64,000 nucleotides of DNA from an uncultured Acidobacteriaceae bacterium (GTDB lineage Bacteria > Acidobacteriota > Terriglobia > Terriglobales > Acidobacteriaceae): assembly GCA_963714225.1 (NCBI GenBank), contig CAVQNY010000010.1, positions 59,002-123,001 on the forward strand. Reading direction: 5' to 3'. The position numbers and the translations under genes are program-made. Shown in pieces: positions 23,571 through 45,120 of the stretch; position 1 is the stretch's first letter, and each line of letters starts with the position of its first letter. Under the pieces are notes generated by a model. The model had not been told where the DNA came from and searched no databases. It saw nothing but the letters and a program-made list of their open reading frames with translations.

Positions 23571-23583
23571 TAGAAGATTCCCA

Positions 23584-23625
23584 TTCAAAATAATAAGAGG
23601 CGAGACTGTTGTAAGTCTCGCCTCT
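23584..23625 (-). terminator. Intrinsic terminator downstream of the TonB-dependent receptor gene
   Basis: Perfect 12-bp stem AGAGGCGAGACT / AGTCTCGCCTCT with a 6-nt loop (23596-23625). On the minus strand it is followed by TTATTATTTTGA. Confidence 0.72.
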
Positions 23626-23657
23626 ATTAGACGCTGCAACCTCTTACCGGTCAAGAC

Positions 23658-27458: not shown

Positions 27459-27563
27459 TGAGCCTCCAGGGAAACCCCTCAGTTTTGAGTTTGGGCGCGA
27501 GTAACCCTTTTGTACTACGCCGGTCATTTAGCCCCAAGCTGGCATTCGTTGTCAAGATAAAAA

Positions 27564-28835: not shown

Positions 28836-29976
28836 CAAGCGATTCCTCTTGCGTTTCGCCTCCGCTTGCTTCTTTTTCGCGATTCCTGCTCATTCTCCGG
28901 CTCCGCTGCGGGCGCAGGTAGCGACAGAGGAACGACTCCTCTATCGCGAGTGGTGGCCCAGGCACAGTACTTCATCCCCGGACCAGTACGTTGGACCGGC
29001 GGAGTGCGCCAAGTGTCATGCGGGGAAGGCGGCGACGCAGAAGAACACTCCCATGGCACGCACCGCTTTCCCCGTTGCCGACTCGGACGTTCTGTCCGCG
29101 CACGGCCAATTGAGTTTCCAAGCGGGCAAAATCAGTTACCAGATCGCGACTGCAGCGGGCAAGAGCGTCTACACGGTCACGGACGGTACGCAAACTCTGT
29201 CGGCACCGTTGACCTGGTCGTTTGGGGATGGCCACGTCGGCCAATCGTACCTCTTCGAGAGGGACGGAAATTTCTTCGAAAGCCGCGTTTCCTACTTCGG
29301 TACTTTGGACGCTCTCGATTTCACCCCTGGCCGCAAACTTACTGAGCCGCGCGATCTCGAGCAGGCTATGGCGCGGCCCGTAACCGGGTCAGAGCTCGTC
29401 CGTTGTTTCGCCTGCCACACCACCGCCTCTACGATCAAAGACAAGTTTGAGCGCACTCGAATCATACCGGGGATTACCTGTGAAGCCTGTCACGGGCCGG
29501 GTCTCAATCACGTAATCGCGGAGGAAACAGGACAGCAAATAGGCCTAATCTTCAATCCCGGCGGGCTCAAGCCGTCCGACGCCGCCGATTTCTGCGGAGC
29601 GTGCCATGGCACCTGGTGGGACGTCAAACTCGAGAATCTCGCAGGGCTCGCCAACCTACGCGCCCAGCCTTATCGCCTGGAAAAAAGCCGGTGCTGGGGA
29701 ACCAAAGGGGACGCTCGCCTGGCTTGCGTGGCCTGCCACGACCCGCACCAGCCGCTCGTGCGCGATTCGAGTTCGTACGACAAAAACTGCTTGAGCTGTC
29801 ACCTTACAGCAACTTCGACGAGGCCGGCCCCTGACCATCCAGGCCGTGCCTGCAAGGTGAGCCCAAGAGATTGTGCTTCCTGCCACATGCCGAATTATGT
29901 CGATTCGACAATGCATCGTGCATTTACCGATCACGACATCCGCGTTGTGCGGCCGGGTGCGCCGTATCCCGATTGA
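28816..29976 (+). CDS. Heptaheme c-type cytochrome, secreted
   Basis: Signal-like N-terminus and seven CXXCH motifs (CAKCH, CFACH, CEACH, CGACH, CVACH, CLSCH, CASCH). The ATG at 28816 overlaps the LacI gene end by 20 nt. Confidence 0.85.
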   Translation: MYWRGTSKRFLLRFASACFFFAIPAHSPAPLRAQVATEERLLYREWWPRHSTSSPDQYVGPAECAKCHAGKAATQKNTPMARTAFPVADSDVLSAHGQLSFQAGKISYQIATAAGKSVYTVTDGTQTLSAPLTWSFGDGHVGQSYLFERDGNFFESRVSYFGTLDALDFTPGRKLTEPRDLEQAMARPVTGSELVRCFACHTTASTIKDKFERTRIIPGITCEACHGPGLNHVIAEETGQQIGLIFNPGGLKPSDAADFCGACHGTWWDVKLENLAGLANLRAQPYRLEKSRCWGTKGDARLACVACHDPHQPLVRDSSSYDKNCLSCHLTATSTRPAPDHPGRACKVSPRDCASCHMPNYVDSTMHRAFTDHDIRVVRPGAPYPD

Positions 29977-30063
29977 GCTACGCCGGGAATCTCACAGTTA
30001 ACAGGAAGCGGAACTGAAACCCCGCATCCAGTACTCGCCCGCTCCAGAACCATTACGGCGCCA

Positions 30064-30270
30064 GTTCGGTGATTTTTAGTTTTAGTGTTTGATTGATGCG
30101 GAGATCCTTAGTCACGACCTGTTTACGCCCGAGGGCCAATCGATTTCAATGCGATCTATTTTGGTTGCCTCTCCCAGTCCGAAGTAGAGGGGCAGAACGC
30201 TCTGGGCTAGATATCCCGATTTACCGTCGTTGTACTTCATAAAAGTCCGGTTTCCGGCCTTCGCCCGAAC
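30064..30270 (-). pseudogene. C-terminal ASPIC/UnbV remnant, frameshifted
   Basis: GKSGYLAQSVLPLYFGLGEATKIDRIEIDWPSG, then a stop. The family-like tail (RKQVVTKDLRINQTLKLKITELAP*) continues in another frame. No N-terminal FG-GAP region lies upstream on this strand. Confidence 0.55.
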
Positions 30271-30280
30271 GGTAGCTCCG

Positions 30281-30460
30281 ATGCGACTTGAGACGTACTG
30301 GGCCTGGGGCGTCAGCGTGGGAGACGTAAACGCCGACGGCCGGGACGATGTGTTTGTCAGCCCAGGTATGGGTTTCCCTTTCCCGATTGGATTGGACTCG
30401 AACATGACCGACGATCGGCTCGACAGGGCACCCATAATATTGACTGTTCCGGAACAATAA
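30281..30460 (+). pseudogene. Isolated FG-GAP repeat fragment on the strand opposite the adjacent UnbV remnant
   Basis: WAWGVSVGDVNADGRDDVFVS is a typical FG-GAP calcium-binding repeat. There is no credible start and no continuation. Confidence 0.4.
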
Positions 30461-30714
30461 ACACAAGACAGTTCACAGAATACCGGCCATCGGGCACGAC
30501 CTTCAGCCAATGAATCTGCTTCACCTGGCTACGGCATCAACTCGATGCTCCTGAACAATGCGCCGTGTACATCCAAAATCCACACCCTGCCGACCCTGCC
30601 GAACTCGTCCTTGACTCGCGTCCGGAAGGTGTGCTCCCATCGGAAAAATCGGTTTTCTGGCCTGGGAAACCGAAAGACGCGCAGGCTCGCATTCGGCGCA
30701 GGAAGTAAACACCA

Positions 30715-32259
30715 ATGAGTTTTCGGATGGATGGGAGCTTGGTCTGCCGATCGAGGTGCCTTCTTGCGATCGTGGTTTTGTGGCTGGTCGGCGCAGGACG
30801 ATCCCAGATGGCCCAAGGCGGCTGTAGCGGCGTTTCCAACGACCCGCAAGGGGCGGTTACATGGGTCCCGCAATGGTGCCAGGAATTTAACGCTACTACG
30901 CCAGCTTCACCCGACACCACGGTATGGGCTTTCGATCTCGGAAACGGCGGTTTTGGCAACCACGAATTGGAGACGTATTGTGGACCTCCCGGATATTCGG
31001 GGAACCCGAGTGACTGTCCCACGATTTTCTCGACGACCACGTCCAACGCCTATCTTGACGGCAACGGACACCTCGTGATTCAGGCCATACACAGTTCCGG
31101 GACCTGGTTTTCGGCTCGCATGAAGACCGAAGGCTTGGAGAATTTTCACTACGGCCGGATTGAGGCGAGCATCCAGTTACCCAACACGACCAACCAGGGT
31201 CTTTGGCCGGCCTTTTGGTCCCTCGGCAGCGATATCAACCCCACTCCCTGGCCAGGGTGCGGCGAAACGGATTTTATGGAGGTTTGGTCCCCTCAAGTGG
31301 ATGGTGGGCCGGGTCTGGGAGGGAATAGGACAACAATCCACACGGCGGCGACTGTCGGCTCGGGCCTACAACCGAATGGAGTTTACACGTTCCCGTCAGG
31401 CCAAGCCAATGATTCCGCGTTCCATTCGTATGGCATGATTTGGTCGGCCAACATGCAGCAGTTCTATATCGACAACCCGCTGCAGCCGTACTACATCACC
31501 ACGCCTAGCAACCTCTCCTCGGGAGATACATGGCCTTTTAATGCCAACATTTTCCTGATCATGAATATAGCGGTGGGAGGCACCTTGGGCGGAACACCCA
31601 GCGCGTTAACCCCCGATCCGGGAATCATGACGCTCGACTATGTTCGGCAATATCTGCCTTCCGCGGCTGTGCCCGCTCCGGTGATGGGAACTCCCCCTGC
31701 TATCACCGTGACCGCGGGAGCGACGACTGGCAACAGCAGTGTGCTTACGCCGGCGCTCACACCCAACACAGGCTTTGTCTATTTTTCCTGCGGCACCAAT
31801 GCGCCCAAAGCGATTTGTGCGATCACTACGACTGACCCACTGAATCCCTATGTCGCGAACTCTAACGCCAGCCCCGCCGAGACCGTCACGGTGGCGGTTA
31901 CGACCACGGCGAATACGAACGCATCGAGTACGACCACGGCTAGCTTGATCCCGCCTCCCTTCTTCCTCCATCCCAAAATGCGCATGTGGCTGCCCATAAC
32001 AATAGTGGGGTTTCTCGTGTCTGTGGTCGTGGCGCCCGTTACGCGCAACTTCCTTTATGCCTGCGCGCTGATGGCTGGACTGATTCTTACGGGGGCTGCG
32101 ACCTGGACCTGCGGCGGCGGCAGGAGCACTCCCAGCAATAACGGTACGCCTCCAGGCAGTTACACGGTGACTGTTTATGCGTTTAGTGAAAGCAACCGCA
32201 GCAATGGGGCGAACAGCAATGCCGACTCGAGCGTCGCCATTCCCCTCACGGTGAACTGA
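30715..32259 (+). CDS. Glycoside hydrolase family 16 (laminarinase/beta-glucanase-like) with a Thr/Ala-rich Ig-like tail and hydrophobic segments
   Basis: GNHELETY, GRIEASIQLP...GLWPAFWSLG, and the catalytic-type motif GETDFMEVW (E-x-D-x-x-E). Confidence 0.85.
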   Translation: MSFRMDGSLVCRSRCLLAIVVLWLVGAGRSQMAQGGCSGVSNDPQGAVTWVPQWCQEFNATTPASPDTTVWAFDLGNGGFGNHELETYCGPPGYSGNPSDCPTIFSTTTSNAYLDGNGHLVIQAIHSSGTWFSARMKTEGLENFHYGRIEASIQLPNTTNQGLWPAFWSLGSDINPTPWPGCGETDFMEVWSPQVDGGPGLGGNRTTIHTAATVGSGLQPNGVYTFPSGQANDSAFHSYGMIWSANMQQFYIDNPLQPYYITTPSNLSSGDTWPFNANIFLIMNIAVGGTLGGTPSALTPDPGIMTLDYVRQYLPSAAVPAPVMGTPPAITVTAGATTGNSSVLTPALTPNTGFVYFSCGTNAPKAICAITTTDPLNPYVANSNASPAETVTVAVTTTANTNASSTTTASLIPPPFFLHPKMRMWLPITIVGFLVSVVVAPVTRNFLYACALMAGLILTGAATWTCGGGRSTPSNNGTPPGSYTVTVYAFSESNRSNGANSNADSSVAIPLTVN

Positions 32260-32310
32260 CGCCTGGTAGTTCGCAATGGCACGAGATCGCCATGATAGGA
32301 TTCAGTTCGG

Positions 32311-34033
32311 ATGCGCCGGGAAGAGCTAACAACGCGCTTCATCGCTTGCGGAATCCTTATTTGTGCGTTTCTTGCCCGTGCGCAAGACAAGTCCCCCGCC
32401 TATCGCGGCCCCGTATTTGAAGACGTCGGCCGGCAAAGCGGCCTGACCGTGCCGCATCAATCCTCGCCAGACAAGCGTTACGTTATCGAATCCATGAGTG
32501 GTGGGGTCGGCCTGTTTGATTGCGACAACGACGGCAAACTGGACATCGTGACTGTGAACGGTTCGACCGTCGATCGCTATCGCGAGGGTGGCGACCCAAT
32601 GATCACCTTGTATCACCAGGAGCCGGACGGGACTTTCAAAGACATTACCAAATCGGCGGGCCTCGCTCGGCGCGGATGGGGCATGGGTGTGGCTGTGGCC
32701 GACTTCGACAATGACGGGTGGCTCGACATTTACGTGACGGGATACGGCGGCAACGTGCTGTATCGCAACCTCGGCAATTGCAAATTCGAAGATGTCACCG
32801 AAAAAGCTGGTGTCCGCGGCGGCGGATTCAGCACGGGCGCGGCCTGGGCCGACTACGACCGCGACGGCCATGTGGATCTATTTGTCTCCCGTTACGTCCA
32901 CGTCGATCTCAACGATTTGCCGGAGTTTGGCAAGGGCAAATTCTGCCGCTACAAAGGTGTGCTGGTTCAGTGTGGTCCCTGGGGCCTGCCGGGGGAGAGC
33001 GATCTCCTCTATCACAACCGCGGCGACGGCACGTTTGAGGAAGTTTCCGTGCGCGCCGGGTGTTCACGATTCGGAAGGCCGCTTCGGACTGGGCGTGGTG
33101 TGGGGTGATTACGACAACGACGGCTGGCCAGATCTACTGGTCGCCAACGATGCGGGCGCGAACTATCTCTACCACAACAATCATAACGGGACGTTTACCG
33201 ACGTGGCGCTGCTGGCCGGTGTGGCTTTGAGCGGCGACGGGCAAGAGCAGGGCAACATGGGAGTCGACTTCGGCGATTACAATCACGACGGATGGCTCGA
33301 TATCATCGACACCACGTTTGCCGATCAACCCAAGACGCTCTATCGCAACCTGGGTCACGGGATTTTTGAGGACGTAAGCCGGGCGGCGCAAATCGCTCAG
33401 GCGAGCTTTCCTGACGTAGCCTGGGGAACCGGCTTTGTGGACTTTGACAACGATGGCTGGCTGGATATTCTCATTGCCAACGGCCATGTATATCCGCAGG
33501 TGGATACCATCAGCGAAGGCGCGCGCTATAGCGAGCCAATCTTTCTACATCTTAATAAGCACGACGGGACCTTTGAAGACGCTTCCGCCGCTTCGGGACT
33601 CGCGGTTCTGCCACTGGCTTCACGCCGGGGCGTAGCGTTCGGCGACATTTGGAATGATGGCGCAATGGATGTTTTGATTTTGAACGTCGGCGAACCCCCG
33701 ACTCTCCTGCGCAATCATCTGGCCAACGGCAACCACTGGGTTGAATTCAGCTTGCAAGGCACGAAAAGCAATCGAGCGGCCATCGGCGCTCGCCTCACCA
33801 TTCACGCGGGAAAACTCGTGCAATTCAACGAGGTGCGCGGCGGCGCCAGCTATCTTTCACAAAACGATCTTCGGCTGCACTTCGGCCTGGAGGCGAACAC
33901 CAAGATCGAAAGCGTCGAAATCGCCTGGCCCAGCGGACTCGTAGAGCATCTCAGCAATCTCGCCGTGGATCAGATTTACACCATTGAAGAGGGAAAAGGG
34001 ATCCGCCCGCAGAAGAATCCCGCCATTCCATGA
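32311..34033 (+). pseudogene. ASPIC/UnbV FG-GAP protein (CRTAC1 family) interrupted by a +1 frameshift at the GGG run 33058-33060
   Basis: ORF 32311-33108 and ORF 32792-34033 join as ...FEEVSVRAG|VHDSEGRFGLGVVWGDYDNDG. This parallels ...[30 protein letters not shown] in the intact paralog at 17918-19711. Removing one G restores the frame. Confidence 0.85.
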
Positions 34034-35904
34034 AACGTCGCTCCGGGCTGTTCTTGTCTTCTGGATGGCACAACGTTCCGGGTGGCGGGACACGGGGGCG
34101 CGGGATACGGAGTCGCGCGATATGGATGGTTGGGCTCGCGGCAATCTGTCTGGTTTGCGCGGGTCTGCGGATCGCGGAAGCGCGCCAGACCGGACAAGCG
34201 GTGGCTCAGGCGACGCCATCGGAGCAGTACTTGAACACGCGGCTGGGGGCGGAATATGTCGGCGACGAAGCTTGCCGAAAGTGCCATTCCTCGGTATATG
34301 AAACGTTCAAGCAGACAGGAATGGGACGATCCGTTTCAATTCCCTCTGCCGAAGATCTGCGCGAACTGGCGAAGCCAGTCAGGATCATCAACCAGAAGCT
34401 GAATCGGACCTATTCGATGTATTCCCGCGATGGCAAAATCATCCACGAGGAATCCGAGAAGGACGCCAAAGGCCGCATCGTTTTTTCTGACACCCATGAA
34501 ATTTCCTACACCGTGGGCGCCGGTGATGTAGGAAAGAGCTATCTCGTGGTTAAAGGAGACGGGTTGTTCGTCTCGCCCATCTCGTACTACGAACGCATTC
34601 GGGGTTGGGATTTATCGCCTGGCTACGGCGAAGGCATATTCCGCGGTTTTACGCGTCGCGTGGTGGACTTGTGCGTGGACTGTCATACGGGGATGCCGGA
34701 GCTGGTTGCAGGCAGTCACAACCGTTTCCAGCAGCCTCCTTTTCGCGTTTTGACGGTCGGGTGCGAGCGCTGTCATGGGCCGGGCGCCATTCATGCGCAA
34801 CAGCGGAACCAGGACGCCATGTTCGGAGGATCCTTCGAAGGACCAATCGACTTTTCCATCGTAAATCCCCGGAAGTTACGGCCCGAAATTCGAGACGACG
34901 TCTGTGCGCAGTGCCACTTGGCGGGAGATGCCCGGGTGCTTCAGCCCGGCAAGAATTATCTTGACTTCCGACCGGGAACTCCGCTGGGTGATGTGGTGGG
35001 CATATTTTCGGTTCCCCAGACGATCAAAGGGAATCATTTTGTGGCGCTCGATCAGTTTGAGCAAGTAAAGATGAGTCGTTGTTGGGTGGCCAGCGCTGGC
35101 CGGATGGGTTGTATCTCATGCCACGATCCTCACGTTCAACTCCACGGCGATCAGGCGGCCGAGTTTTTCCGCAACCGGTGTCTGAGCTGCCACTCCACCG
35201 GCAGTTGCCGCGAACCGCTAGCACATCGACAAGCCACCTCGCCGTCCGACAATTGCATTTCATGCCATATGCCGAAGCAGCCGAGCGAAAACATCGGCCA
35301 CTCGTCAATCACAGACCACCGTATTTTGCGGACTTCGTCTGAAATTCCAGCGGTCCTGCAAGGTAGTGCGTCCCCGTCTCCCATGGATTTGCTCTACGAC
35401 ACAAAACCTTCCGGCTCAGGCGAAACACAGTCGAATCTGCGAAACCTGGCGCTGGCTTATGCGCAGGTTGCCGTGCGCTATCCGGAACTAGGCGAGAAGG
35501 GTCTTGCACTCCTGGAGCAGGCCGCTGCCGCACTCCCGGGTGACGCTGAGATCCAGGCGGCTTACGGCTCCGTTCTGCGCGTCGCGCGCCCCAGGGACGA
35601 ACCGCGTGCCGCCCAGGCCTTCGAAAAGGCCATCGATGCCGGCTCTAAATCCGCCGAAGTGCGAACCCAGCTCGCCCGCTTGCGCCTGCAACAGGGGCAG
35701 GTAACCGCCGCCATGGAGCTGTACAAGGAATCGATCCAGATGGATCCGTACTTCACTCCGGCATACTTGGATCTGGCGCAGGTTTACTCGATGTTGAAAG
35801 ATCGGAAAAGCGCTTTGGAAATCCTAGACGCCGTTTTGAAAATAGACCCGGGAAACGATGCCGCTCGTCAGGAGCGGATCAAAGCTGAGGCTCTGCCCAA
35901 CTAG
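34030..35904 (+). CDS. Heptaheme c-type cytochrome fused to a C-terminal TPR domain
   Basis: Seven CXXCH motifs (CRKCH, CVDCH, CERCH, CAQCH, CISCH, CLSCH, CISCH), collinear with the 28816-29976 protein. About 190 C-terminal residues form TPR units. ATGA overlap with the upstream gene. Confidence 0.85.
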   Translation: MKRRSGLFLSSGWHNVPGGGTRGRGIRSRAIWMVGLAAICLVCAGLRIAEARQTGQAVAQATPSEQYLNTRLGAEYVGDEACRKCHSSVYETFKQTGMGRSVSIPSAEDLRELAKPVRIINQKLNRTYSMYSRDGKIIHEESEKDAKGRIVFSDTHEISYTVGAGDVGKSYLVVKGDGLFVSPISYYERIRGWDLSPGYGEGIFRGFTRRVVDLCVDCHTGMPELVAGSHNRFQQPPFRVLTVGCERCHGPGAIHAQQRNQDAMFGGSFEGPIDFSIVNPRKLRPEIRDDVCAQCHLAGDARVLQPGKNYLDFRPGTPLGDVVGIFSVPQTIKGNHFVALDQFEQVKMSRCWVASAGRMGCISCHDPHVQLHGDQAAEFFRNRCLSCHSTGSCREPLAHRQATSPSDNCISCHMPKQPSENIGHSSITDHRILRTSSEIPAVLQGSASPSPMDLLYDTKPSGSGETQSNLRNLALAYAQVAVRYPELGEKGLALLEQAAAALPGDAEIQAAYGSVLRVARPRDEPRAAQAFEKAIDAGSKSAEVRTQLARLRLQQGQVTAAMELYKESIQMDPYFTPAYLDLAQVYSMLKDRKSALEILDAVLKIDPGNDAARQERIKAEALPN

Positions 35905-35921
35905 AATAAAAGGAGGGGGCG

Positions 35922-36330
35922 ATGTGCCGAATCCAAATATCTCAGCCTTGGCGTTTCCCGCTTTTGGTTTTGCTGTCTTTCTCCCTGGGTTGTGGAGGCG
36001 GAAGCATGAATTCCTCCGTTCGCCGACACGGACACAGACAGCGTGGAACTGGAAATATTGCCGGTGGTGAATCACCTGAACAATGGCGACGACAGCGTGG
36101 TGGTGATGGTCGCCAATCATGCAGTCAATTCGCCGAATGACAACAACGGCCCCGGCGCACCGCGCCCCATCAGTATCGACCTTTCCGCGTTGGGCACTTT
36201 CACGTCGGGCAGCCTGCTGACGATCGATGCCAACACCAGCGTGACCTCAGGGCCCGCCGCTTCCTCCATCACGCCGAGTCCACAGATGACGGTTCACAAC
36301 AGAACATCCTTCGCACGTCATCGGAAGTGA
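35922..36330 (+). pseudogene. Small lipoprotein with a beta-sandwich-like domain, frameshifted near 36015
   Basis: AAGGAGGGGG RBS and a lipobox signal (LLVLLSFSLGCGGGS) are in one frame. The plausible mature part (ADTDTDSVELEILPVVNHLNNGDDSVVVMVANH...ISIDLSALGTFTSGSLLTIDANTSVTSGP) is in the +1 frame. It loosely resembles C-terminal sandwich domains of glycoside hydrolases. Confidence 0.4.
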
Positions 36331-36461
36331 CGTGTTCGGCCTGTTCCGATTGGGGTTGAGACCTACGGGCGCGAGCGACGCGTGTATGCTGGTGGTCAGA
36401 CCGAAGCGACGCTCCTCTATCGCCATTTGCCGATGCGAAGCGACAAGGTAGTGCCGGAATC

Positions 36462-37853
36462 ATGCTGATCCATCCAGATCGTCTTTTTCCTGCCGAGCCC
36501 AGTACTCGAAAGATCGCCAGCACGCTCTTTGAGCAGGTGCGAAGCTTGCCCATTGTTAGTCCGCATGGGCATACCAATGCGGCATGGTTTGCGAGAAACG
36601 AACCCTTCCCCGATCCGGCACAACTCTTTGTGCAGCCCGACCACTACATTTTCCGAATGCTCTACAGCCAGGGAATCTCGCTTGAGGAACTGGAGATGGG
36701 ACGGCCGGAGCCGAAGAATCCACGGAATGTCTGGCGCATCTTCGCCAGTCATTACTATCTGTTCCGCGGAACGCCGACCCGCATGTGGCTGGACTTTGCC
36801 TTTCAGGAGCTTTTCGGACTGGAGCAGCGACTCGCGGAAGAGACCGCCGATCTTTACTTCGACACGATCTCGGAAAAATTACGCACGCCGGCGTTCCTCC
36901 CGCGCGCGCTGTACGAGCGTTTCCATTTGGAAGTGCTGGCGACCACCGATTCTCCGCTCGATTCGCTGGCCGCTCACAAGACCATCGGCGAATCGAATTG
37001 GAAGGCGAGGATCCTGCCCACCTTTAGGCCCGACCCGGTTGTCGATCCTGAGTTTGCGGGATTTGCCGAAAATATTTCGAAGCTCGGCGGCAATACTGGC
37101 GAAGACACCTCGACGTGGGCGGGCTACCTGAACGCGCTCCGAGTGACGCGCGTTCGCTTTCGCAAACTCGGCTGCACGGCAACCGACCACGGGCATCCCA
37201 CGGTGCGAACCGCGAATCTTTCCGCAGTGGAGGCTGCTCGACTGTTTCGTCGGGTGATCGCGGGCACTGCCGATGGCTTGCAGCAGGAACTTTTCCGCGC
37301 CCAAATGCTGACCGAAATGGCGCGGATGAGCCTCGACGACGGGCTGGTCATGCAGATTCACCCGGGAAGCGCGCGCAACCACAATCGCAAGCTCTATGAG
37401 CAATATGGCCGCGACGTGGGTGCTGACATCCCGATGCCGACAAATTATGTGGACGCGCTTCGCCCTTTGCTCGATCAGTTTGGCAACGAGCGCGATCTGA
37501 CAATCATTCTTTTCACGCTGGATGAGTCTGCCTACAGCCGGGAATTGGCTCCCCTGGCCGGGCACTACCCGTGCTTGAGGCTGGGGCCACCGTGGTGGTT
37601 TCACGACAGTCCGGAGGGAATGATGCGTTTCCGCGAGCGCGTTACCGAGACGGCGGGTTTTTATAATACCGCCGGTTTCAACGACGATACCCGAGCCTTC
37701 CTTTCGATCCCGGCTCGGCACGATGTAGCGCGGCGCATGGATTGCGCCTTCCTGGCAAAGTTGGTCGCCGAGCATCGGCTGGAGGAAGAAGAAGCTTTGG
37801 CAGTGGCGCAGGATCTCACCTATCGGTTGGTAAAGAAGGCATATCGACTGTAG
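36462..37853 (+). CDS. uxaC: Glucuronate (uronate) isomerase
   Basis: 463 aa. LPIVSPHGHTNAAWFARNEPFPDPAQLFVQPDHYIFRMLYSQGI... is a characteristic UxaC N-terminus. Confidence 0.92.
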   Translation: MLIHPDRLFPAEPSTRKIASTLFEQVRSLPIVSPHGHTNAAWFARNEPFPDPAQLFVQPDHYIFRMLYSQGISLEELEMGRPEPKNPRNVWRIFASHYYLFRGTPTRMWLDFAFQELFGLEQRLAEETADLYFDTISEKLRTPAFLPRALYERFHLEVLATTDSPLDSLAAHKTIGESNWKARILPTFRPDPVVDPEFAGFAENISKLGGNTGEDTSTWAGYLNALRVTRVRFRKLGCTATDHGHPTVRTANLSAVEAARLFRRVIAGTADGLQQELFRAQMLTEMARMSLDDGLVMQIHPGSARNHNRKLYEQYGRDVGADIPMPTNYVDALRPLLDQFGNERDLTIILFTLDESAYSRELAPLAGHYPCLRLGPPWWFHDSPEGMMRFRERVTETAGFYNTAGFNDDTRAFLSIPARHDVARRMDCAFLAKLVAEHRLEEEEALAVAQDLTYRLVKKAYRL

Positions 37854-37862
37854 GATCGCGGC

Positions 37863-39188
37863 ATGGCGGACCCGACGGTTTTCGACAGCCAGACGAAAAG
37901 CGGCTCATCGCACGGGCCGTCTCCGGGCACCGGGCTGGGGCGCGTGCGCTGGACGGTGTGCGCCATGCTGTTCGTCGCCACCTCCATCAATTACATGGAC
38001 CGCCAGGTCATCGCGATCCTCAAGCCCACCCTCGAGCACAGCATCGGCATGACGGAGGTAAGTTACGGCTACATAGTGGACGCATTCCAGATCGCCTACG
38101 CGATTGGCCTGCTGGCCGCCGGCCGGTTGATCGACAAGCTGGGCACGCGCATCGGGTATATGTTGGTGATGGCAGTGTGGAGCGTCTCCGCGATGGGCCA
38201 CGCGCTGGCCAGCACGGTGCTCGAGTTCGGGTTCGCGCGCTTCTTCCTGGGGCTCGGTGAATCGGGCAACTTTCCCGCCGCGATCAAGACCGTGGCCGAG
38301 TGGTTTCCGCAGAACGAACGCTCGCTGGCCACGGGCATCTTCAACTCTGGAGCAAATGTTGGAGCTGTCCTGGCCCCGGCCATCGTGCCATGGGTAACTC
38401 TGCGTTGGGGCTGGCACGTGGCCTTTCTGACTACCGGTCTGTTCAGTATGCTCTGGATTCTGTGGTGGTTTCGCTATTACCGCAGGCCCGCCGATCACTC
38501 CACGCTGACCGGCAAAGAACTGCGCCATATTGATCAGGAGGCGGGCGTGGAACCGGGCCCGTCTCCGTCCATGCCGTGGCGCCGACTATTGAGATGTCGC
38601 CAGACTTGGGCCTTTTCTGCCGCTAAGTTCCTCACCGATCCGATCTGGTATTTCTATTTGTTCTGGCTGCCGTCGTACTTCAGCGCGAAATTCAATCTGA
38701 ACCTTTCCCATCTCGGGCTACCGCTCATTATCGTTTATAACGTGTCGGCGATTGGCAGCATCGGCGGAGGCTGGCTGCCCGCGCCCTTTCATCGTCTCGG
38801 ACTGTCGCACAACTTCGCCCGGCTAGCAGCCATGCTCCTCTGCGGATTTCTGGTCGTTCCCATCTACACGGCCAGCAGTGTCCAGTCGGTGTGGACCGCC
38901 ATTGCGCTGATCAGCGTGGCTGCGGGCGCACATCAGGGATGGTCGGCTAACCTCTTCACAACGTCATCAGATATGTTTCCGCGCAACGCCGTGGGCTCGG
39001 TGGTCGGTATCGGGAGCATGGCGGGATCCGTGGGCAGCGCGCTTTTCGCCCTTTACGCCGGCCACATCCTGCAACTGACGCATAGCTATACGAGCCTGTT
39101 CGCCATTGCGGCCAGCGCTTATCTGTTGGCTCTGATCGTTCTGTATCTGCTCGCTCCGGAGCTAAAGAAGGTGGAATTCGCCGCATGA
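37863..39188 (+). CDS. exuT: MFS transporter, hexuronate transporter ExuT-like
   Basis: 12-TM MFS protein. It aligns by eye with E. coli ExuT (RW...INYMDRQ..., GTRIGY, AEWFPQNERS, WHVAF). Confidence 0.82.
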   Translation: MADPTVFDSQTKSGSSHGPSPGTGLGRVRWTVCAMLFVATSINYMDRQVIAILKPTLEHSIGMTEVSYGYIVDAFQIAYAIGLLAAGRLIDKLGTRIGYMLVMAVWSVSAMGHALASTVLEFGFARFFLGLGESGNFPAAIKTVAEWFPQNERSLATGIFNSGANVGAVLAPAIVPWVTLRWGWHVAFLTTGLFSMLWILWWFRYYRRPADHSTLTGKELRHIDQEAGVEPGPSPSMPWRRLLRCRQTWAFSAAKFLTDPIWYFYLFWLPSYFSAKFNLNLSHLGLPLIIVYNVSAIGSIGGGWLPAPFHRLGLSHNFARLAAMLLCGFLVVPIYTASSVQSVWTAIALISVAAGAHQGWSANLFTTSSDMFPRNAVGSVVGIGSMAGSVGSALFALYAGHILQLTHSYTSLFAIAASAYLLALIVLYLLAPELKKVEFAA

Positions 39189-40465
39189 GCCTCTATTGCG
39201 ATACGGGCACTATCGAAAGCGATCTGTCGGCGCAACTCGAAGACCTGCTTGCGGAGAGCCTGGCCAAGCTCGGAAAACGAAACCGCGTCCTGGTTGTACC
39301 GCCCGACCAGAGCCGCATACATTCCCGCGCCGGCGACCTGACGCACTATGCGTGGCAGTACTACGGCGACCGGCTGCAAGCGGTGCTGCCCGCTCTGGGC
39401 ACGCACGCTGCCATGCAACCGGAACAGATCTCGCGAATGTTCGGGGCCATGCCGCAGGAGCTTTTCCGCGTGCACAACTGGCGAACCGACGTGGAGACTC
39501 TCGGCGAGGTTCCGGCGGAGTTCATCCACCAGCAATCGGAAGGCAAGCTGAACTATCCCTGGCCGGCACAGGTGAACCGGCTCATTGTGCGTGGCGGCTA
39601 TGAATTGATTCTCTCCATCGGCCAGGTCGTGCCCCATGAAGTGATCGGCATGGCGAATTACAACAAGAACATTCTGGTGGGCACGGGAGGCCGCGAGAGC
39701 ATAAACCGCAGCCATTACCTGGGCGCGGTTTACGGGATGGAGCGCATCATGGGCCGCGCTGAGAATCCCGTGCGCAACGTCCTTAATTACGCCTCCGATC
39801 GTTTCCTGCGACAACTGCCCATTGTCTACGTGCTTACCGTAATCGGCCGCGCTGCTAACGGCCAACTTGCAGTGCGCGGCCTTTTCATGGGCGACGACGC
39901 CGACTGCTTTGAGCGCGCCGCCGCGCTGAGCTTGAAAGTGAACTTCGAGACGCTCGACGCGCCCATCCGCAAGGCTGTCGTCTATCTCGATCCGCATGAG
40001 TTTCACAGCACATGGCTGGGCAACAAGGCGATTTATCGAACGCGCATGGCGCTGGCCGACGGCGCCGAACTGATCATCCTCGCGCCTGGAGTAAGAACAT
40101 TCGGCGAAGACCCGGCAATCGATGCTCTCATCCGCAAGTACGGCTATCGCGGAACTCCCGCGACCCTCGAAGCGGTGAATGCCAATATGGATCTCGCCGG
40201 CGACTTGAGCGCGGCTGCGCACCTCATACACGGTTCTTCGGAAGGCCGCTTCACCATCCGGTGGTGCCCCGGACATCTCCGCAAAGAAGAGGTTGAAGGG
40301 GTGGGTTTTGCGTTCGGCGATTTGAAGAGCATGCTGATGCGCTACCGCCCGCAGACGCTTGGTCATGGCTACAACCGCGTAGAGGGCGAAGAGGTCTTCT
40401 TTATTCCAACTCCAGGGCTAGGGTTGTGGGCGTATAGCGGTAAGTTGCTGGGGCGCGACCGATGA
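39185..40465 (+). CDS. LarA-superfamily (DUF2088 / lactate racemase N-terminal domain) protein, a candidate 2-hydroxyacid epimerase
   Basis: RVLVVPPDQSRIHSRAG...LPALGTHAAMQPEQISRMFG and GQVVPHEVIGMANYNKNILVGTGGRESINRSH follow the LarA_N pattern (D.TR..., A.GTHR.M..E, pH...G..GG.K). ATGA overlaps with both neighbours. Confidence 0.72.
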   Translation: MSLYCDTGTIESDLSAQLEDLLAESLAKLGKRNRVLVVPPDQSRIHSRAGDLTHYAWQYYGDRLQAVLPALGTHAAMQPEQISRMFGAMPQELFRVHNWRTDVETLGEVPAEFIHQQSEGKLNYPWPAQVNRLIVRGGYELILSIGQVVPHEVIGMANYNKNILVGTGGRESINRSHYLGAVYGMERIMGRAENPVRNVLNYASDRFLRQLPIVYVLTVIGRAANGQLAVRGLFMGDDADCFERAAALSLKVNFETLDAPIRKAVVYLDPHEFHSTWLGNKAIYRTRMALADGAELIILAPGVRTFGEDPAIDALIRKYGYRGTPATLEAVNANMDLAGDLSAAAHLIHGSSEGRFTIRWCPGHLRKEEVEGVGFAFGDLKSMLMRYRPQTLGHGYNRVEGEEVFFIPTPGLGLWAYSGKLLGRDR

Positions 40466-41016
40466 TCGTGGTCTTGATGGGCGTGAGCGGCGCCGGCAAA
40501 ACGACCGTCGGCTTGTTGCTGGCCGCTCGCATCGGATGGACGTTCGAAGACGCCGACGATTATCACTCGACGGAAAGCCGACAGAAAATGGCCGCTGGAA
40601 TACCGCTCACCGACGCCGACCGATGGCCCTGGCTCAAGGTTCTGCATGAGCGCATGCTCGAGCACCGACAGAAGGGCGAGAACGCCATTTTGGCCTGCTC
40701 GGCGCTGACCGAGCAGTATCGAGAGGTGCTTGCCGGCGGCTTGGCGGAGAACGAAATGCGCTTTGTCTACCTGCATGCGCCGAGCGCTCTGATCAAAGAG
40801 CGAATGAAGGCGCGACATCATCCCTACATGAACCCCGACCTGCTCGATAGCCAACTGGCGACCCTGGAAGTACCCTCAGATGCATGGTCCATCGCTGTAG
40901 CCGGAAGTCCGGAGGAAGCCGTGGAACAGATCCTGGCTCGACTGCGCGGAGCAGGGCTGCTCCCCCCAGGAGCGGAGAAACGGAGAAACCATGACTGCCA
41001 ATATCCTCAGCCTTGA
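40462..41016 (+). CDS. gntK: Gluconokinase
   Basis: MIVVLMGVSGAGKTTVG...EDADDYHS...KMAAGIPLTDADRWPWL matches the GntK/IdnK family. Confidence 0.88.
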   Translation: MIVVLMGVSGAGKTTVGLLLAARIGWTFEDADDYHSTESRQKMAAGIPLTDADRWPWLKVLHERMLEHRQKGENAILACSALTEQYREVLAGGLAENEMRFVYLHAPSALIKERMKARHHPYMNPDLLDSQLATLEVPSDAWSIAVAGSPEEAVEQILARLRGAGLLPPGAEKRRNHDCQYPQP

Positions 41017-41767
41017 AGGCAAAACCGCGGTTGTGATCGGAGGTAGCTCCGGGATCGGACGTACTCTAAGCCTCGGCCTCGCGGATGCTGGAGCTGATGT
41101 CATTGCCTCCGCACGCCGCCAGGAACAGGTTGACGAAACCGCGGCCGGGATCGAGAAGCGCGGACGCCAGACCCTGCGCCTGTGCTCGGATGTGTGCCAG
41201 CGCGCTTCGCTCGAACAACTACTGGCAGCTTCAGTTCAGCGCTTCGGCAAAATCGACATCCTAATCAACTGCGCCGGAATCACTAAGCGGACGCCCACGC
41301 TGACCATGCCGGAAGAGGAATGGGCCCGTGTCGTGGACACGAACCTTACTGGAACCCTCCGCTCTTGCCAGGTCTTCGGCAAACACATGCTGGAGCGTGG
41401 CTACGGCCGCATGGTCAACATCGCCTCTCTCAGCAGTTTCGTTGCGCTCCACGAGGTTGCCGCCTATGCGGCCAGCAAGGCGGGGGTTGTTTCGCTCACG
41501 CGCTCGCTGGCCGTGGAGTGGTCAAAGCAGGGGATTACGGTAAACGCCATCGCGCCCGGCGTCTTCCGCACCGCCCTGAATGCAGACCTACTCGACCACA
41601 CGCCGCGCGGCGAAGAGCTGCTCATGCGGACGCCGATGGGCCGCTTCGGCAGGACCGAAGAACTGGTCGGAGCGGTCGTGTACCTCTGCTCCGATGCCGC
41701 GTCCTTCGTTACCGGGCAGACTTTGGTCGTCGACGGAGGATTTCTGGCCAGCGGCGTCAACCAATAG
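40991..41767 (+). CDS. SDR family oxidoreductase (possible fructuronate or ketogluconate reductase)
   Basis: Rossmann motif GGSSGIG, NAG motif, catalytic YAASKAG. Overlaps the gntK end. Confidence 0.86.
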   Translation: MTANILSLEGKTAVVIGGSSGIGRTLSLGLADAGADVIASARRQEQVDETAAGIEKRGRQTLRLCSDVCQRASLEQLLAASVQRFGKIDILINCAGITKRTPTLTMPEEEWARVVDTNLTGTLRSCQVFGKHMLERGYGRMVNIASLSSFVALHEVAAYAASKAGVVSLTRSLAVEWSKQGITVNAIAPGVFRTALNADLLDHTPRGEELLMRTPMGRFGRTEELVGAVVYLCSDAASFVTGQTLVVDGGFLASGVNQ

Positions 41768-41846
41768 CCGATGGGAGAAATTGAGGCTTACCTTAAGATG
41801 ATGGAACATCGCGGTAGAGAATCTTCTGGATAGCAGGAGGGATGGC

Positions 41847-42854
41847 ATGGGGTACACACGACGCACGGTTCTCGCGGGCTTAGGACTGGCAGGACTCCAG
41901 GCAGCGATATCGCCTCTGGTCAACCAAGCCGCAGCATCTTCGCTCCTGGAACGGTCAGCGGCTGAACCGGACGCGGGCATTTGCCCGTTCAAGCTGGCGG
42001 TGATCAATGACGAGATCACGCAGGACTTCGAGAAGGCATGTCAGATTGTGTCCGGCGATTTCGGCCTGCATTGGATTGAGCTGCGCTCGATGTGGAACAA
42101 GAATGTGACCGAACTCGACGCGAAACAAGTTGAGGATGCGAACAAGATCCTCCAGGAACACACATTGCGAGTCACGGATATTGCCAGCCCGCTGTTCAAG
42201 ACCGACTGGCCTGGGGCTCCGCGGTCATCGCAGAGTGAAAGCCGCGACCAGTTCCATGCGGACTTCGATGCCAGCGCGCAGGATAAGCTGCTGGAGCGGT
42301 GTATTTCGCTTGCCAAATCTTTCAAGACGGACAGGATTCGCTGTTTCGACTACTGGCGGCTGGATGATCAGAAGCCATACCGCGCGGCAATCAATGCCAA
42401 ACTGCAGCAGGCCGCGGAACGCTGCGCTCAGGATAACCTCGTCCTCCTGCTCGAAAATGAAATGTCCTGCAACACAGCAACCGGCGAAGAAGCAGCTGCC
42501 GTGCTGAAGGCGATTCCAAACAAGAACTTCATGCTGAACTGGGATCCCGGCAATGCCGCAGCCATAGGAAGCACGCCCTATCCAACCGGCTATGAATTGT
42601 TGCCCAAACAGCGCGTCGGGCACTGTCACTGCAAGGACGTAGTGAGCAAGCCGGACCACAAATACGATTGGGCTCCGGTAGGCGGCGGTGTCGTGGATTG
42701 GGTTGGGCAACTTCAGGCTTTCGAGCGCGATGGCTTTCGCTGCGGGCTGAGTCTCGAGACTCACTGGCGCGGCGCAGGCACGCCCGAAGCCTCCACACGC
42801 ATCAGCATGGACGGACTCAAGAAAACTCTGACCAGGGCTGGCATTTCCTGTTGA
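41847..42854 (+). CDS. Sugar phosphate isomerase/epimerase (xylose isomerase-like TIM barrel) with a Tat-type signal
   Basis: RRTVLAGLGLAGLQAA twin-arginine signal, followed by an AP-endonuclease-2 / xylose-isomerase-like barrel (LLLENE..., HCHCKD). Confidence 0.83.
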   Translation: MGYTRRTVLAGLGLAGLQAAISPLVNQAAASSLLERSAAEPDAGICPFKLAVINDEITQDFEKACQIVSGDFGLHWIELRSMWNKNVTELDAKQVEDANKILQEHTLRVTDIASPLFKTDWPGAPRSSQSESRDQFHADFDASAQDKLLERCISLAKSFKTDRIRCFDYWRLDDQKPYRAAINAKLQQAAERCAQDNLVLLLENEMSCNTATGEEAAAVLKAIPNKNFMLNWDPGNAAAIGSTPYPTGYELLPKQRVGHCHCKDVVSKPDHKYDWAPVGGGVVDWVGQLQAFERDGFRCGLSLETHWRGAGTPEASTRISMDGLKKTLTRAGISC

Positions 42855-42925
42855 TCAGATTTCTTGTCGGCCCGACAGCTCAAGAATGCCGGACTGCGAC
42901 AGAAGACCCGCTACAAGGAGAACCG

Positions 42926-44246
42926 ATGGTTACAAGACGTGAATTTCTCGATGCGCTTGCTACAGGCGCGGCGGGGCTGGCCGTAGGGAGCACGGCAAAC
43001 AGCTATAGCCAGATCCTCGGTTCGAATGACCGTCTCAACTTTGCCGTGATTGGTCTCAATGGCCGCGCCTACGCTCATCTCTCGGCGCTCAAGGCGAACC
43101 GGAGCGCTGCCCGCATCTCGCATGTCTGCGATGTGGACAGCAATATTCTCAAGAAGTTCGCCGACACTGTGCAGCAGGAAATGGGCGAGGCCCCGGTCGC
43201 GGAGAAAGACTTTCGTCGGATTCTCGAGCAGAAAGATGTGGACGCCATCACGATTGCCACCCCCGAACACTGGCATGCACCGATGGCCATCGCCGGATTG
43301 CAGGCGGGCAAGCACGTCTATGTGGAGAAGCCCTGCAGCCACAATCCTGCTGAGGGCGAGATGCTGGTCGAGGCGCAGCAGAAGTACCGCAAGCTGGTGC
43401 AGATGGGCACACAGCAGCGTTCCTCACCTCACACCATCGAGATCGTCGATAAGATTCACGAAGGCATGATCGGCAGGCCTTACTTCGCGAAAGCTTGGTA
43501 CGTCAATACGCAGGAAGTCGATTGGCGTCGGCAAAGAGGTACCTGTGCCGCCGCAGCTTGATTGGGACCTGTGGCAGGGCCCGGCGCCGCGTCGTCCGTA
43601 TCAGGACAATGTGCATCCTTATAACTGGCACTGGTTCAAGATTTATGGCACCGGTGAAACGCTCAACAATGGCACGCACGAGGTCGATGTCTGCCGCTGG
43701 GCGCTGGGCGTGGACTATCCGGAACGAGTTACCTCGTCCGGCGGCAGATATCATTTCAAAGACGACTGGCAGTTTTATGACACCCTGGTGACCAGCTTCG
43801 AGTACGAAGACAAAATGATTTCGTGGGAGGGCAAGAGCTGCCAGGGAATGAAGTTCTACGGCCGCGATCGTGGTTCGACAATCATGGGAACCACCGGCAC
43901 GGTGCTGGTCGATCGCGGTGGCTATGAGATCTACGACCTCAAGGGCAATAAGACGAGCGAATTCAAGGCCGGCAATGCGACTTCATCCGCGGACCTGATC
44001 GGCCGCGATTCCATGACCGACGCGCACTTCGCGAACTTCATCGCGGGAATCCGTAAAGGCGAGAAACTCAACGCTCCCGTCTCCGTCGGCAATGTCGCGG
44101 TTACGATGCTGCAGCTTTCCAACATCGCGTGGGAAGTCAACCGGGAGCTGCATCTCGACACGAAAGACGGACGGATCCAGGGCGATGCGGAAGCGATGAA
44201 GATGTGGGGACGCGAGTACGAGAAGGGCTGGGCGCCGCATGTCTAG
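42926..44246 (+). pseudogene. Gfo/Idh/MocA family oxidoreductase with a Tat signal, interrupted by a 1-nt frameshift near 43506-43512
   Basis: AAGGAG RBS, Tat signal (TRREFLDALATGAAGLAV) and a Rossmann domain (NFAVIGLNGRAY...TPEHWH). The frame breaks after AKAWYVN. It resumes in the adjacent frame as ...RRKSIGVGKEVPVPPQLDWDLWQGPAPRRPY.... Confidence 0.83.
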
Positions 44247-45120
44247 GAAAAATACTTTCTCCCGTCGCGATTTCGTTCGCTCTGGCGCAATGCTTGCCGC
44301 GGCGTGCGCCGCTCCGAGCGATGTCTTCTCACTGGCTCAGGAAACCGCCATCGACGGACGAAGCATTACCGATTCGTTTGGGTCTGGCCAGCTACACATT
44401 TCGTAACTTCAGCCGCGCGCAGATGATCGGCTTCATGAAGCAGCTCAATGTGTTCGCGTTGAATGCGAAGGACGTCAAAGATCATCTCCCGATGGATGCG
44501 CAGCAAGAGGCGGCTGCGCTTGCGGACTATGCCGCGGCGGGTATCAAGCTGCACGCTGCCGGAGCCATCTATTTCACGAAAGATGAAGATGCGGACATCC
44601 GGACTAAGTTCGAATACTCAAGCGCGCAGGGATTCCGATTATTGTCGCCGGCGACCCCGCACCGCAAACTCTGCCGCGAATGGAGAAGTTCGTGAAGGAG
44701 TACGACATCCGCATCGCGATCCACAATCACGGGCCTGAGGATAAGTTGTGGCCTTCTCCGCTGGATGTATTGAAGGCGGTAAAGAATATGGATCCGCGCA
44801 TCGGCTGCTGCATCGATGTCGGGCATACGGTTCGCGCCGGCACGGATGTGGTTCAGGCGATCCACGAAGCAGGCCCGAGGCTGTTTAACCTACACATGAA
44901 AGACCTCACGAACTTCGAGAGCAAGGAAAGTCAGGTCGCGGTGGGCGACGGCATCATGCCGGTGCGGAAGATGTTTGAAGCCCTCATCGCGACAAAGTAC
45001 CAGGGCTTCGTCGATCTGGAGTATGAGATTCATCCCGACGATCCGATGCCGGGCGTTATCAGCAGTTTTGCTTATATGCGAGGCGTCCTGGCAGGCATGG
45101 GGAATGCGATCCAGGGCTGA
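44237..45120 (+). pseudogene. Sugar phosphate isomerase/epimerase TIM barrel with a Tat signal, carrying two frameshifts (about 44330-44370 and about 44618-44622)
   Basis: Frame a holds the Tat signal (MSRKNTFSRRDFVRSGAMLAAACAAP). Frame b holds ...ALPIRLGLASYTFRNFS...IRTKFEY. Frame c holds LKRAGIPIIVAGDPAPQTLPRMEKFVKEYDIRIAIHNHGPED...VDLEYE.... Confidence 0.72.

Follow-up and report, generated by a model that had tools for sequence, protein, structure and literature searches.

An uncultured Acidobacteriaceae bacterium (assembly GCA_963714225.1) carries five closely packed genes for a uronate isomerase (UxaC), a major facilitator superfamily (MFS) transporter, a LarA homolog, a gluconokinase-type kinase (GntK), and a short-chain dehydrogenase/reductase (SDR). 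The genes lie in a 64,000-nucleotide stretch of contig CAVQNY010000010.1, called the window below, where the open reading frame (ORF) table places all five on the + strand at 36462-41767. They were analysed computationally, together with their relatives, as a candidate route for hexuronate breakdown in which the LarA homolog would act as an epimerase.

Locus and gene identities

Coordinates of the five genes and of three genes that follow them are given in Table 1. The spacing between uxaC and the MFS gene is 9 nt. The MFS and LarA-homolog genes share a 4-nt ATGA overlap at the junction GCCGCATGAGCC, the LarA-homolog gene and gntK share another at CCGATGATCG, and gntK overlaps the SDR gene by 26 nt. 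The SDR start codon is preceded by GGAG at 7 nt. The original prediction had described five tightly packed genes with ATGA overlaps at 39185 and 40462 and a 26-nt overlap at 40991, and the ORF table and junction sequences match that description. This arrangement indicates one translationally coupled operon. A promoter and terminator scan of 35800-43000 found sites no more numerous than in shuffled sequence and is therefore uninformative on transcript boundaries. The operon sequence was found in none of the RNA runs, and its DNA was matched in soil and peat metagenomes.

Table 1. Positions and family matches of the operon genes and of the downstream module
Feature	Position	Strand	Length	Match or basis
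uxaC, glucuronate (uronate) isomerase, operon gene 1	36462-37853	+	463 aa	NF002794, PF02614
MFS transporter, anion:cation symporter type (ExuT/DgoT-like)	37863-39188	+	441 aa	PF07690
LarA homolog, group 18, gntE-like, putative D-mannonate/D-gluconate 2-epimerase	39185-40465	+	426 aa	NF052594
gntK, P-loop GntK/IdnK-type gluconokinase	40462-41016	+	184 aa	TIGR01313
SDR oxidoreductase, presumed D-fructuronate reductase (UxaD/UxuB role)	40991-41767	+	258 aa	adh_short_C2; context
Xylose-isomerase-like TIM barrel, downstream module gene 1	41847-42854	+		Pfam/NCBIfam, AP_endonuc_2
Gfo/Idh/MocA oxidoreductase, twin-arginine-like N-terminus, frameshifted in window	~42851-44246	+		Pfam/NCBIfam
Second TIM barrel, frameshifted in window	~44239-45120	+		Pfam/NCBIfam

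A second contig, JBAUTN010000092.1 (GCA_049582225.1, locus L081), matches the window at 99.46% identity across 21 kb. It encodes the LarA homolog residue for residue, and the two copies of the operon differ by only two substitutions. The 558-bp spacer upstream of uxaC (35905-36461) contains a 95-aa ORF (36043-36330) that has no Pfam match and is also called in L081.

UxaC passes the equivalog model NF002794 at 572.9 bits (cutoff, 387) and matches PF02614 at 263 bits. The transporter matches PF07690 (MFS_1) at 199 bits, and its best NCBIfam subfamily, TIGR00893 (D-galactonate transporter), scores 243 bits, under the cutoff of 395. We take the TIGR00893-type transporter of the operon to belong to the anion:cation symporter (ACS) family, which includes ExuT. 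It is the presumed hexuronate importer, with gene context as the basis for its substrate. GntK passes TIGR01313 at 149.2 bits (cutoff, 113.75) and falls under the cutoffs of the E. coli GntK and IdnK equivalogs.

The SDR matches adh_short_C2 at 217 bits. Among NCBIfam models it scores best against KduD (249 bits), gluconate 5-dehydrogenase (246 bits), and D-mannonate oxidoreductase (235 bits), without reaching the cutoff of any of them. Its neighbours in the PDB include 5U9P and 1VL8 (Thermotoga maritima TM0441), at E of about 2e-53 (2.5e-53 for 1VL8), and it is about as near to TM0441 as to any solved protein. TM0441, whose gene adjoins gntE, is named 'gluconate 5-dehydrogenase' in the PDB; within the T. 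maritima operon its presumed role is that of UxaD, the fructuronate reductase. The window SDR is the presumed D-fructuronate reductase, a function assigned from context.

Family and active-site residues of the LarA homolog

The LarA homolog scores 638.5 bits against NF052594 (NPN_18_hexonate equivalog, 'nickel-dependent putative hexonate epimerase'; cutoff, 500 bits). Other LarA models of NCBIfam reach at most 34 bits, and PF09861 (Lar_N) matches at 31 bits (cutoff, 23.3). NF052594 corresponds to LarA homolog (LarAH) group 18 of Desguin et al. 2020 (PMC7583248), whose supplement places ACP_2683 and Acid345_4308 in that group, with the label 'G2E3' and the function 'putative hexonate epimerase'. 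Identity between the window protein and Acidobacterium capsulatum ACP_2683 is 77%.

Twenty signature positions are defined by Lactiplantibacillus plantarum LarA numbering (PMC7583248). Nineteen were located in the window protein, the equivalent of I220 being unmapped: D41, R44, H74, H151, E152, V153, K161, H177, W277, L278, N280, K281, S342, A344, A345, L347, I348, H349, and S351. All 19 are identical to the group-18 signature row. In alignments of 22 and 24 sequences (71-95% identity), 17 of these positions are invariant, I348 is almost invariant, and S342 is not listed.

The catalytic histidine pair (LarA H108/H174) corresponds to H74 in GTH and H151 in VPHE, which are invariant in 24 relatives and align with the matching histidines of the T. 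maritima structure 4NAR. The cofactor residues keep the LarA spacing, with the lysine tether K161 (LarA K184) 10 residues after H151 and the nickel ligand H177 (LarA H200) 16 residues after K161. D41 and R44 (LarA D72 and R75) fall within PPDQSR and are also invariant. The GntE pocket signature is defined as E-V/S after the second catalytic histidine, W in alpha-11, and A/V plus H in alpha-14 (PMC7583248). It is present as H151-E152-V153, W277-L-G-N-K281, and S342-A-A-A-H-L-I-H-G-S351, and 4NAR has HES, W..GK, and AAH at the aligned pocket positions.

The only solved relative found by sequence is 4NAR (T. maritima Q9WYS3, GntE2), with E = 5.6e-32 by phmmer and 8.5e-41 by profile. It is taken to be the D-gluconate epimerase apoprotein structure mentioned by Desguin et al. 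A structure model (AlphaFold2, 22-sequence alignment) reached a pLDDT of 58, with the C-terminal half below 50, and because of this low confidence it was limited to a coarse fold search and not used for pocket analysis. The ten best PDB matches in Foldseek were all LarA family proteins, with 4NAR first (E = 1.9e-17) and 5HUQ, 6C1W, and 2YJG among them.

By sequence, the protein is a LarAH group-18 member related to GntE. It has the signature residues of ACP_2683 and Candidatus Koribacter Acid345_4308 and differs from that group in nothing essential. L. plantarum LarA (5HUQ) belongs to the same fold family, and equivalents of its D72, R75, H108, H174, K184, and H200 are present. However, identity to it is about 14%, F175/F176 are replaced by E/V, the alpha-14 residues are the GntE-type A-A-H, and the window gene has no adjoining larBCE. 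The invariant residues, the intact gene within a coupled operon, and the two substitutions against the second assembly point to purifying selection on the LarA homolog.

Proposed pathway

Conversion of mannonate to gluconate by a LarA homolog has precedent. Rodionova et al. 2012, as quoted in PMC6978723, proposed from gene context that T. maritima GntE converts mannonate to gluconate, and that hexuronates are connected to pentose-phosphate metabolism through gluconate kinase and 6-phosphogluconate dehydrogenase. The same source, in the part quoted there, already remarked gntE homologs in Lactobacillus, Acidobacterium, and Terriglobus; its content is also cited via PMC3750489, PMC6353982, and PMC7583248. 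The T. maritima pectin-induced unit reads aldH-pelB-gnd-uxaRED-gntEK. D-mannonate/D-gluconate 2-epimerase activity was reported for GntE2 (LarAH20, T. maritima) and GntE1 (LarAH19, C. glutamicum) by Desguin et al. 2020 (PMC7583248), and a 2024 study found that Phytophthora nicotianae GntE (LarAH15) converts D-mannonate to D-gluconate in vitro. The idea of a mannonate-to-gluconate bypass is thus sound and already known: it was predicted in 2012, validated for sister groups, and named in NCBIfam. New here are the synteny over 80 acidobacterial loci, the GntK::LarAH18 fusions, and the gene arrangement at a locus termed L084.

The window operon probably converts D-glucuronate (hexuronate) to 6-phospho-D-gluconate, bypassing the dehydratase/2-keto-3-deoxygluconate (KDG) branch through a nickel-cofactor mannonate/gluconate epimerase. 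The ACS-type MFS symporter would import uronate, and UxaC would isomerise D-glucuronate to D-fructuronate, which the SDR would reduce to D-mannonate with NAD(P)H. The LarA homolog would then invert C2 of D-mannonate, giving D-gluconate. In this step the nickel-pincer nucleotide would be tethered covalently on Lys161 with His177 as nickel ligand, and a hydride would pass from C2 to the cofactor and return from the other side, His74 and His151 serving as acid/base pair. GntK would phosphorylate D-gluconate to 6-phosphogluconate. Gnd or Edd/Eda, encoded elsewhere, would pass 6-phosphogluconate into the pentose-phosphate or the Entner-Doudoroff pathway. With Gnd, the conversion of uronate to ribulose-5-phosphate would be redox-neutral, as for the Lactobacillus suebicus pathway (PMC6978723).

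The assignments of UxaC, the GntK-type kinase, and the LarAH18 protein are supported by curated hidden Markov model cutoffs and conserved residues. From sister enzymes and gene context we infer the substrates of the epimerase, the SDR, and the transporter, namely D-mannonate/D-gluconate for the epimerase. The original prediction had drawn the same route, from glucuronate through fructuronate, mannonate, and gluconate to 6-phosphogluconate. It gains support from the group-18 placement, the residues, 4NAR, TM0441, and the neighbourhoods and fusions described below. A check that it had proposed, of the cofactor-binding His and Lys against characterised LarA homologs, found K161, H177, and the catalytic H74 and H151 all present.

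About 60 ORFs of the window (a greedy set with a 90-aa minimum, together with a few overlapping alternatives) were scanned against Pfam or NCBIfam; gene absences reported here apply to the 64-kb window and not to the genome. The scan found no mannonate dehydratase (UxuA, PF03786), PfkB/KDG kinase, or 2-keto-3-deoxy-6-phosphogluconate (KDPG) aldolase. The earlier claim that uxuA, kdgK, and eda are not in the window is borne out. Its wider form, an operon without these genes, stands within the window and extends no further, and eight related loci do carry a KdgK-like PfkB kinase. The Ashwell pathway of E. coli (UxaC-UxuB-UxuA-KdgK-Eda) shares with the window UxaC, the reduction of fructuronate to mannonate, and an ExuT-type importer. 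However, mannonate is dehydrated there and would be epimerised here, the window lacks mannonate dehydratase, KDG kinase, and KDPG aldolase, and the long-chain UxuB reductase stands against an SDR.

The cofactor genes larB, larC, and larE, which the original prediction had not seen, are likewise missing from the scanned ORFs, and they are not found in the typical +/-3-gene context of group 18. The epimerase might then be non-functional for want of the nickel-pincer cofactor, with the operon working through a canonical uxuA-kdgK-eda pathway encoded elsewhere. This is very improbable: the cofactor and catalytic residues are invariant among relatives of 71-95% identity, the gene is intact in two assemblies that differ by two substitutions, and the lar genes for cofactor synthesis often lie apart from LarA homologs (PMC7583248 supplement).

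Related loci in Acidobacteriota

The 80 closest genomic loci were searched by tblastn with window proteins and representatives of recurrent neighbour families, and genes within 6 kb of the LarA homolog were counted. Almost all loci are labelled Acidobacteriota (Acidobacteriaceae, Terriglobales, Terracidiphilus, Candidatus Sulfotelmatobacter, and Silvibacterium), with 71-87% protein identity. Cultured relatives that have the cluster include A. capsulatum ATCC 51196 and Silvibacterium bohemicum S15 (locus L061). UxaC is encoded near and upstream of the LarA homolog at 47 of the 80 loci, an MFS transporter at 45, an SDR at 40, and UxaE (PF16257) at 32. Less frequent neighbours are a divergent GntR/FCD regulator (20 loci), GntK (12), GH28 polygalacturonase (9), and a KdgK-like PfkB kinase (8). 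Most often the genes are arranged as GntR< UxaC> MFS> LarAH18> UxaE> SDR>. The window layout, in which GntK replaces UxaE (uxaC-MFS-gntE-gntK-SDR), recurs at one other locus, and a bare LarAH18-GntK pair occurs at five. Five loci encode a decarboxylating Gnd (TIGR00873, 788 bits) in the 10-kb flanks. Because UxaC, MFS, SDR, and GntK recur across these related loci, the arrangement is not a chance juxtaposition. The context published for group 18 comprises SDR, Gnd, a ribokinase-family kinase, MFS, UxaC, and KduI (PMC7583248 supplement).

UxaE was found in the window neither by Pfam scans nor by tblastn, and the operon therefore appears specific to glucuronate; entry of galacturonate would require a uxaE gene elsewhere in the genome. 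Degraded copies of the relatives' UxaE, GntR, PfkB, GH28, and GH79 were sought in the window by tblastn, and none was found. No GntR/FCD regulator lies ahead of uxaC in the window, in contrast to the divergent one at 20 of the 80 related loci.

The acidobacterial gene set is the counterpart of the T. maritima set. The gnd-uxaR-uxaE-uxaD-gntE-gntK locus of T. maritima follows the same logic of reduction to mannonate, C2 epimerisation, phosphorylation, and then 6-phosphogluconate dehydrogenase, and GntE2 (4NAR) and TM0441 (1VL8) are the best or near-best solved relatives of the window epimerase and SDR. The two sets also differ. GntE2 belongs to LarAH20 rather than group 18, with about 23% identity between the window protein and 4NAR in the Foldseek structural alignment, and the T. 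maritima-type (group-20) context has a COG1070 (FGGY) sugar kinase in contrast to the P-loop GntK/IdnK type of the window. The window operon includes uxaC and the MFS importer, whereas uxaE, gnd, and a GntR regulator are absent from the window.

Some of these neighbours bear on whether another sugar acid is the substrate. The LarA homolog could epimerise a different hexonate, an aldarate, or a uronate, with a KduD-like SDR, and the locus would then handle mixed pectin products rather than a linear route. For group 18, Desguin et al. go no further than 'a hexonate', and for group 19 they suggest aldarates (PMC7583248); KduI lies near 12% of group-18 genes (PMC7583248 supplement). KduD is the top NCBIfam match of the SDR, under its cutoff, and KdgK-like PfkB kinases and GH28 enzymes occur at related loci. 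This alternative is nevertheless improbable: pairing and fusion with a GntK/IdnK-type kinase point to gluconate or its C2 epimer, Gnd is present at five loci, and the GntE-type pocket residues are kept.

At the eight loci with a PfkB kinase (including L013, L031, L041, L064, and L020), the 360-aa protein takes the place of GntK (LAR> PfkB> SDR>). It is KdgK-like and far under family cutoffs, it lies beside gnd in L020 and L064, and none of the loci has both kinases. It may have replaced the gluconate kinase as a non-orthologous substitute, or it may be a genuine KDG kinase.

Kinase-epimerase fusions and the order of steps

An exhaustive search of 1.84 billion cluster representatives found GntK::LarAH18 fusions in four 50%-identity clusters (P0123, P0125, P0137, and P0151). 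The proteins have 588-612 residues with the kinase domain N-terminal, and Pfam and NCBIfam matches confirm both domains. Compared with the window proteins, the kinase domain shows 42-47% identity to GntK (P0123 and P0125; E = 2e-42 and 5e-38) and the LarAH18 domain 48-55% identity to the LarA homolog. The clusters comprise several proteins encoded on different contigs; a member from Pirellulaceae is named gluconokinase by NCBI.

At L084 (GCA_038247415.1), the fusion scores 563 bits against NF052594 and 164 bits against TIGR01313. Its gene directly follows uxaC (528 bits) and an SDR gene whose product passes the D-mannonate oxidoreductase model NF006132 (360 bits; cutoff, 281). Since the adjoining SDR passes this model, mannonate is clearly the intermediate in L084. 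This independent lineage thus places the same four activities side by side, with kinase and epimerase physically joined.

The L084 SDR also bears on a rearranged route in which the epimerase acts on D-fructuronate (5-keto-D-mannonate) to give 5-keto-D-gluconate, which an SDR of the gluconate 5-dehydrogenase type would reduce to D-gluconate for GntK. Gluconate 5-dehydrogenases are among the top named PDB and NCBIfam neighbours of the window SDR, and on chemical reasoning fructuronate is also a 2-hydroxyacid with the C2 configuration of mannonate. The route nevertheless earns very little credence: the SDR beside the fusion passes the D-mannonate oxidoreductase model, sister GntEs accept mannonate, and TM0441, despite its PDB name, is presumably the fructuronate reductase UxaD.

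The fusions are compatible with either order of the kinase and epimerase steps. If the last two steps were swapped, 'GntK' would be a D-mannonate kinase and the LarA homolog a 6-phospho-D-mannonate 2-epimerase yielding 6-phosphogluconate. L. suebicus provides the precedent: its extracts need ATP to convert mannonate and turn 6-phosphomannonate and 6-phosphogluconate into each other, and its proteome is rich in a gntE homolog, the structural genes of that pathway being unassigned (PMC6978723). The L. suebicus galacturonate pathway resembles the proposed route in its entry by UxaC, UxaE, and fructuronate reductase, its 6-phosphogluconate product, and its redox-neutral course to ribulose-5-phosphate, and differs in placing the kinase before the epimerase (mannonate kinase plus 6-phosphomannonate 2-epimerase; PMC6978723). 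The millimolar Km of characterised GntEs for free mannonate and the match of the window kinase to the broad GntK/IdnK subfamily model only, not to the E. coli equivalogs, also favour the swap. In contrast, three GntE-branch LarA homologs act as epimerases on free D-mannonate in vitro (kcat, 59-197 per second), no phosphate-binding sequence feature was identified in the window LarA homolog, and we know of no LarA-family enzyme that acts on a phosphorylated substrate. The swapped order is a real but minor possibility. The broader idea that the native substrate of 'GntE' enzymes is a phosphorylated hexonate is rather unlikely; the high Km for free mannonate and the existence of kinase::epimerase fusions would agree with it and are no proof.

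Several points weigh against the proposed pathway. Demonstrated activity is confined to LarAH19, LarAH20, LarAH15, and LarAH10, all outside group 18, and the name of NF052594 itself keeps the word 'putative'. C. glutamicum GntE1 and P. nicotianae LarAH15 are likewise nickel-pincer-dependent LarA-type enzymes with the GntE pocket signature and have demonstrated activity, and they too belong to other phylogenetic groups. The Km values of characterised GntEs for D-mannonate are 9.4, 17, and 120 mM (PMC7583248 and the 2024 study), and the authors of the GntE1 work (120 mM) doubted mannonate as its native substrate. In L. suebicus extracts, free mannonate is not epimerised and is phosphorylated first (PMC6978723). 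The window SDR passes no specific NCBIfam model and is about equally near KduD, gluconate 5-dehydrogenase, and mannonate oxidoreductase. At 17 of the 80 loci the LarA homolog has none of the listed neighbours and lies in an unrelated context. Among the scanned ORFs of the window there is no 6-phosphogluconate dehydrogenase gene (gnd), and no larB, larC, larE, or nickel transporter gene.

Three other proteins related to the LarA homolog are noteworthy. P0157, a metagenomic protein of 823 aa, joins a LarAH18-like domain (44% identical to the window LarA homolog) to a C-terminal N-acylglucosamine 2-epimerase (AGE, PF07221, 157 bits), a second kind of sugar epimerase/isomerase. P0121 (632 aa) and P0128 (531 aa) are the closest 50%-cluster representatives of the window LarA homolog, with 58% and 55% identity. 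They have long low-complexity insertions and tails and lie on large contigs, and for these reasons look eukaryotic. Eukaryotic LarA homologs have been placed in the GntE branch in a published remark, with which both would fit.

Adjacent genes

The operon is followed by a module of two TIM barrels and a Gfo/Idh/MocA oxidoreductase (Table 1) with weak 'glycoside 3-dehydrogenase'/IolG/IolE-like similarity. The module adjoins the uxaC/LarAH18 genes, in varying orientation, at eight or more acidobacterial loci (L001, L002, L009, L011, L021, L026, L031, and L042), and at eight its first TIM-barrel gene is no more than 6 kb from the LarA homolog. In L084 (2762-5698), from an unrelated lineage, the fusion gene also has a TIM-Gfo-TIM trio next to it, with a Gfo protein that shares only 22% identity with the acidobacterial Gfo. 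The acidobacterial module may supply the uronate pathway. The first TIM-barrel gene was considered as a substitute for UxaE and rejected, as it encodes an AP_endonuc_2 rather than a PF16257 protein and travels with Gfo/Idh/MocA as a separate module.

Relative to L081, the window has single-base indels at 33056, 43510, 44339, and 44620, and also at 30464 and 32111-32113. They split three genes that are intact in L081, encoding an FG-GAP/ASPIC protein (32311-34033), the Gfo/Idh/MocA oxidoreductase, and the following TIM barrel. The indels could be assembly errors or strain-level pseudogenes.

Two clusters of FG-GAP/ASPIC-UnbV and TPR proteins lie at 17918-27527 (-) and 28726-35904 (+). The first adds a 1289-aa CarboxypepD_reg/outer-membrane beta-barrel protein. 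The second adds a GH16 glycanase and multihaem c-type cytochrome-like proteins (28726-29976 and 34030-35904), the latter with haem-motif matches fused to TPR repeats. An IS630-type transposase is present as two ORFs, HTH at 10895-11500 and DDE_3 at 11524-11949, and is either interrupted or frameshift-using.

Implications

Hemicellulose and pectin have glucuronate and galacturonate among their major components, and Acidobacteriaceae are dominant degraders in acidic soils and peat. If the proposed pathway is correct, uronic acids would enter the pentose-phosphate pathway in these bacteria by a redox-neutral route with a nickel-dependent step, and not by the textbook KDG branch. Metabolic models, predictions of nickel requirement, and automated annotation would be affected. 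Many database copies of LarAH18 genes are still called 'lactate racemase', and correcting these names is of practical value. Should a phosphorylated hexonate be the true substrate, it would give nickel-pincer enzymes their first phosphosugar-acid substrate. The compact operon and the fusions are candidates for deciding the order of kinase and epimerase. Group 18 would represent a large third branch of GntE-like enzymes, and the window operon a clean acidobacterial example of the GntE bypass.

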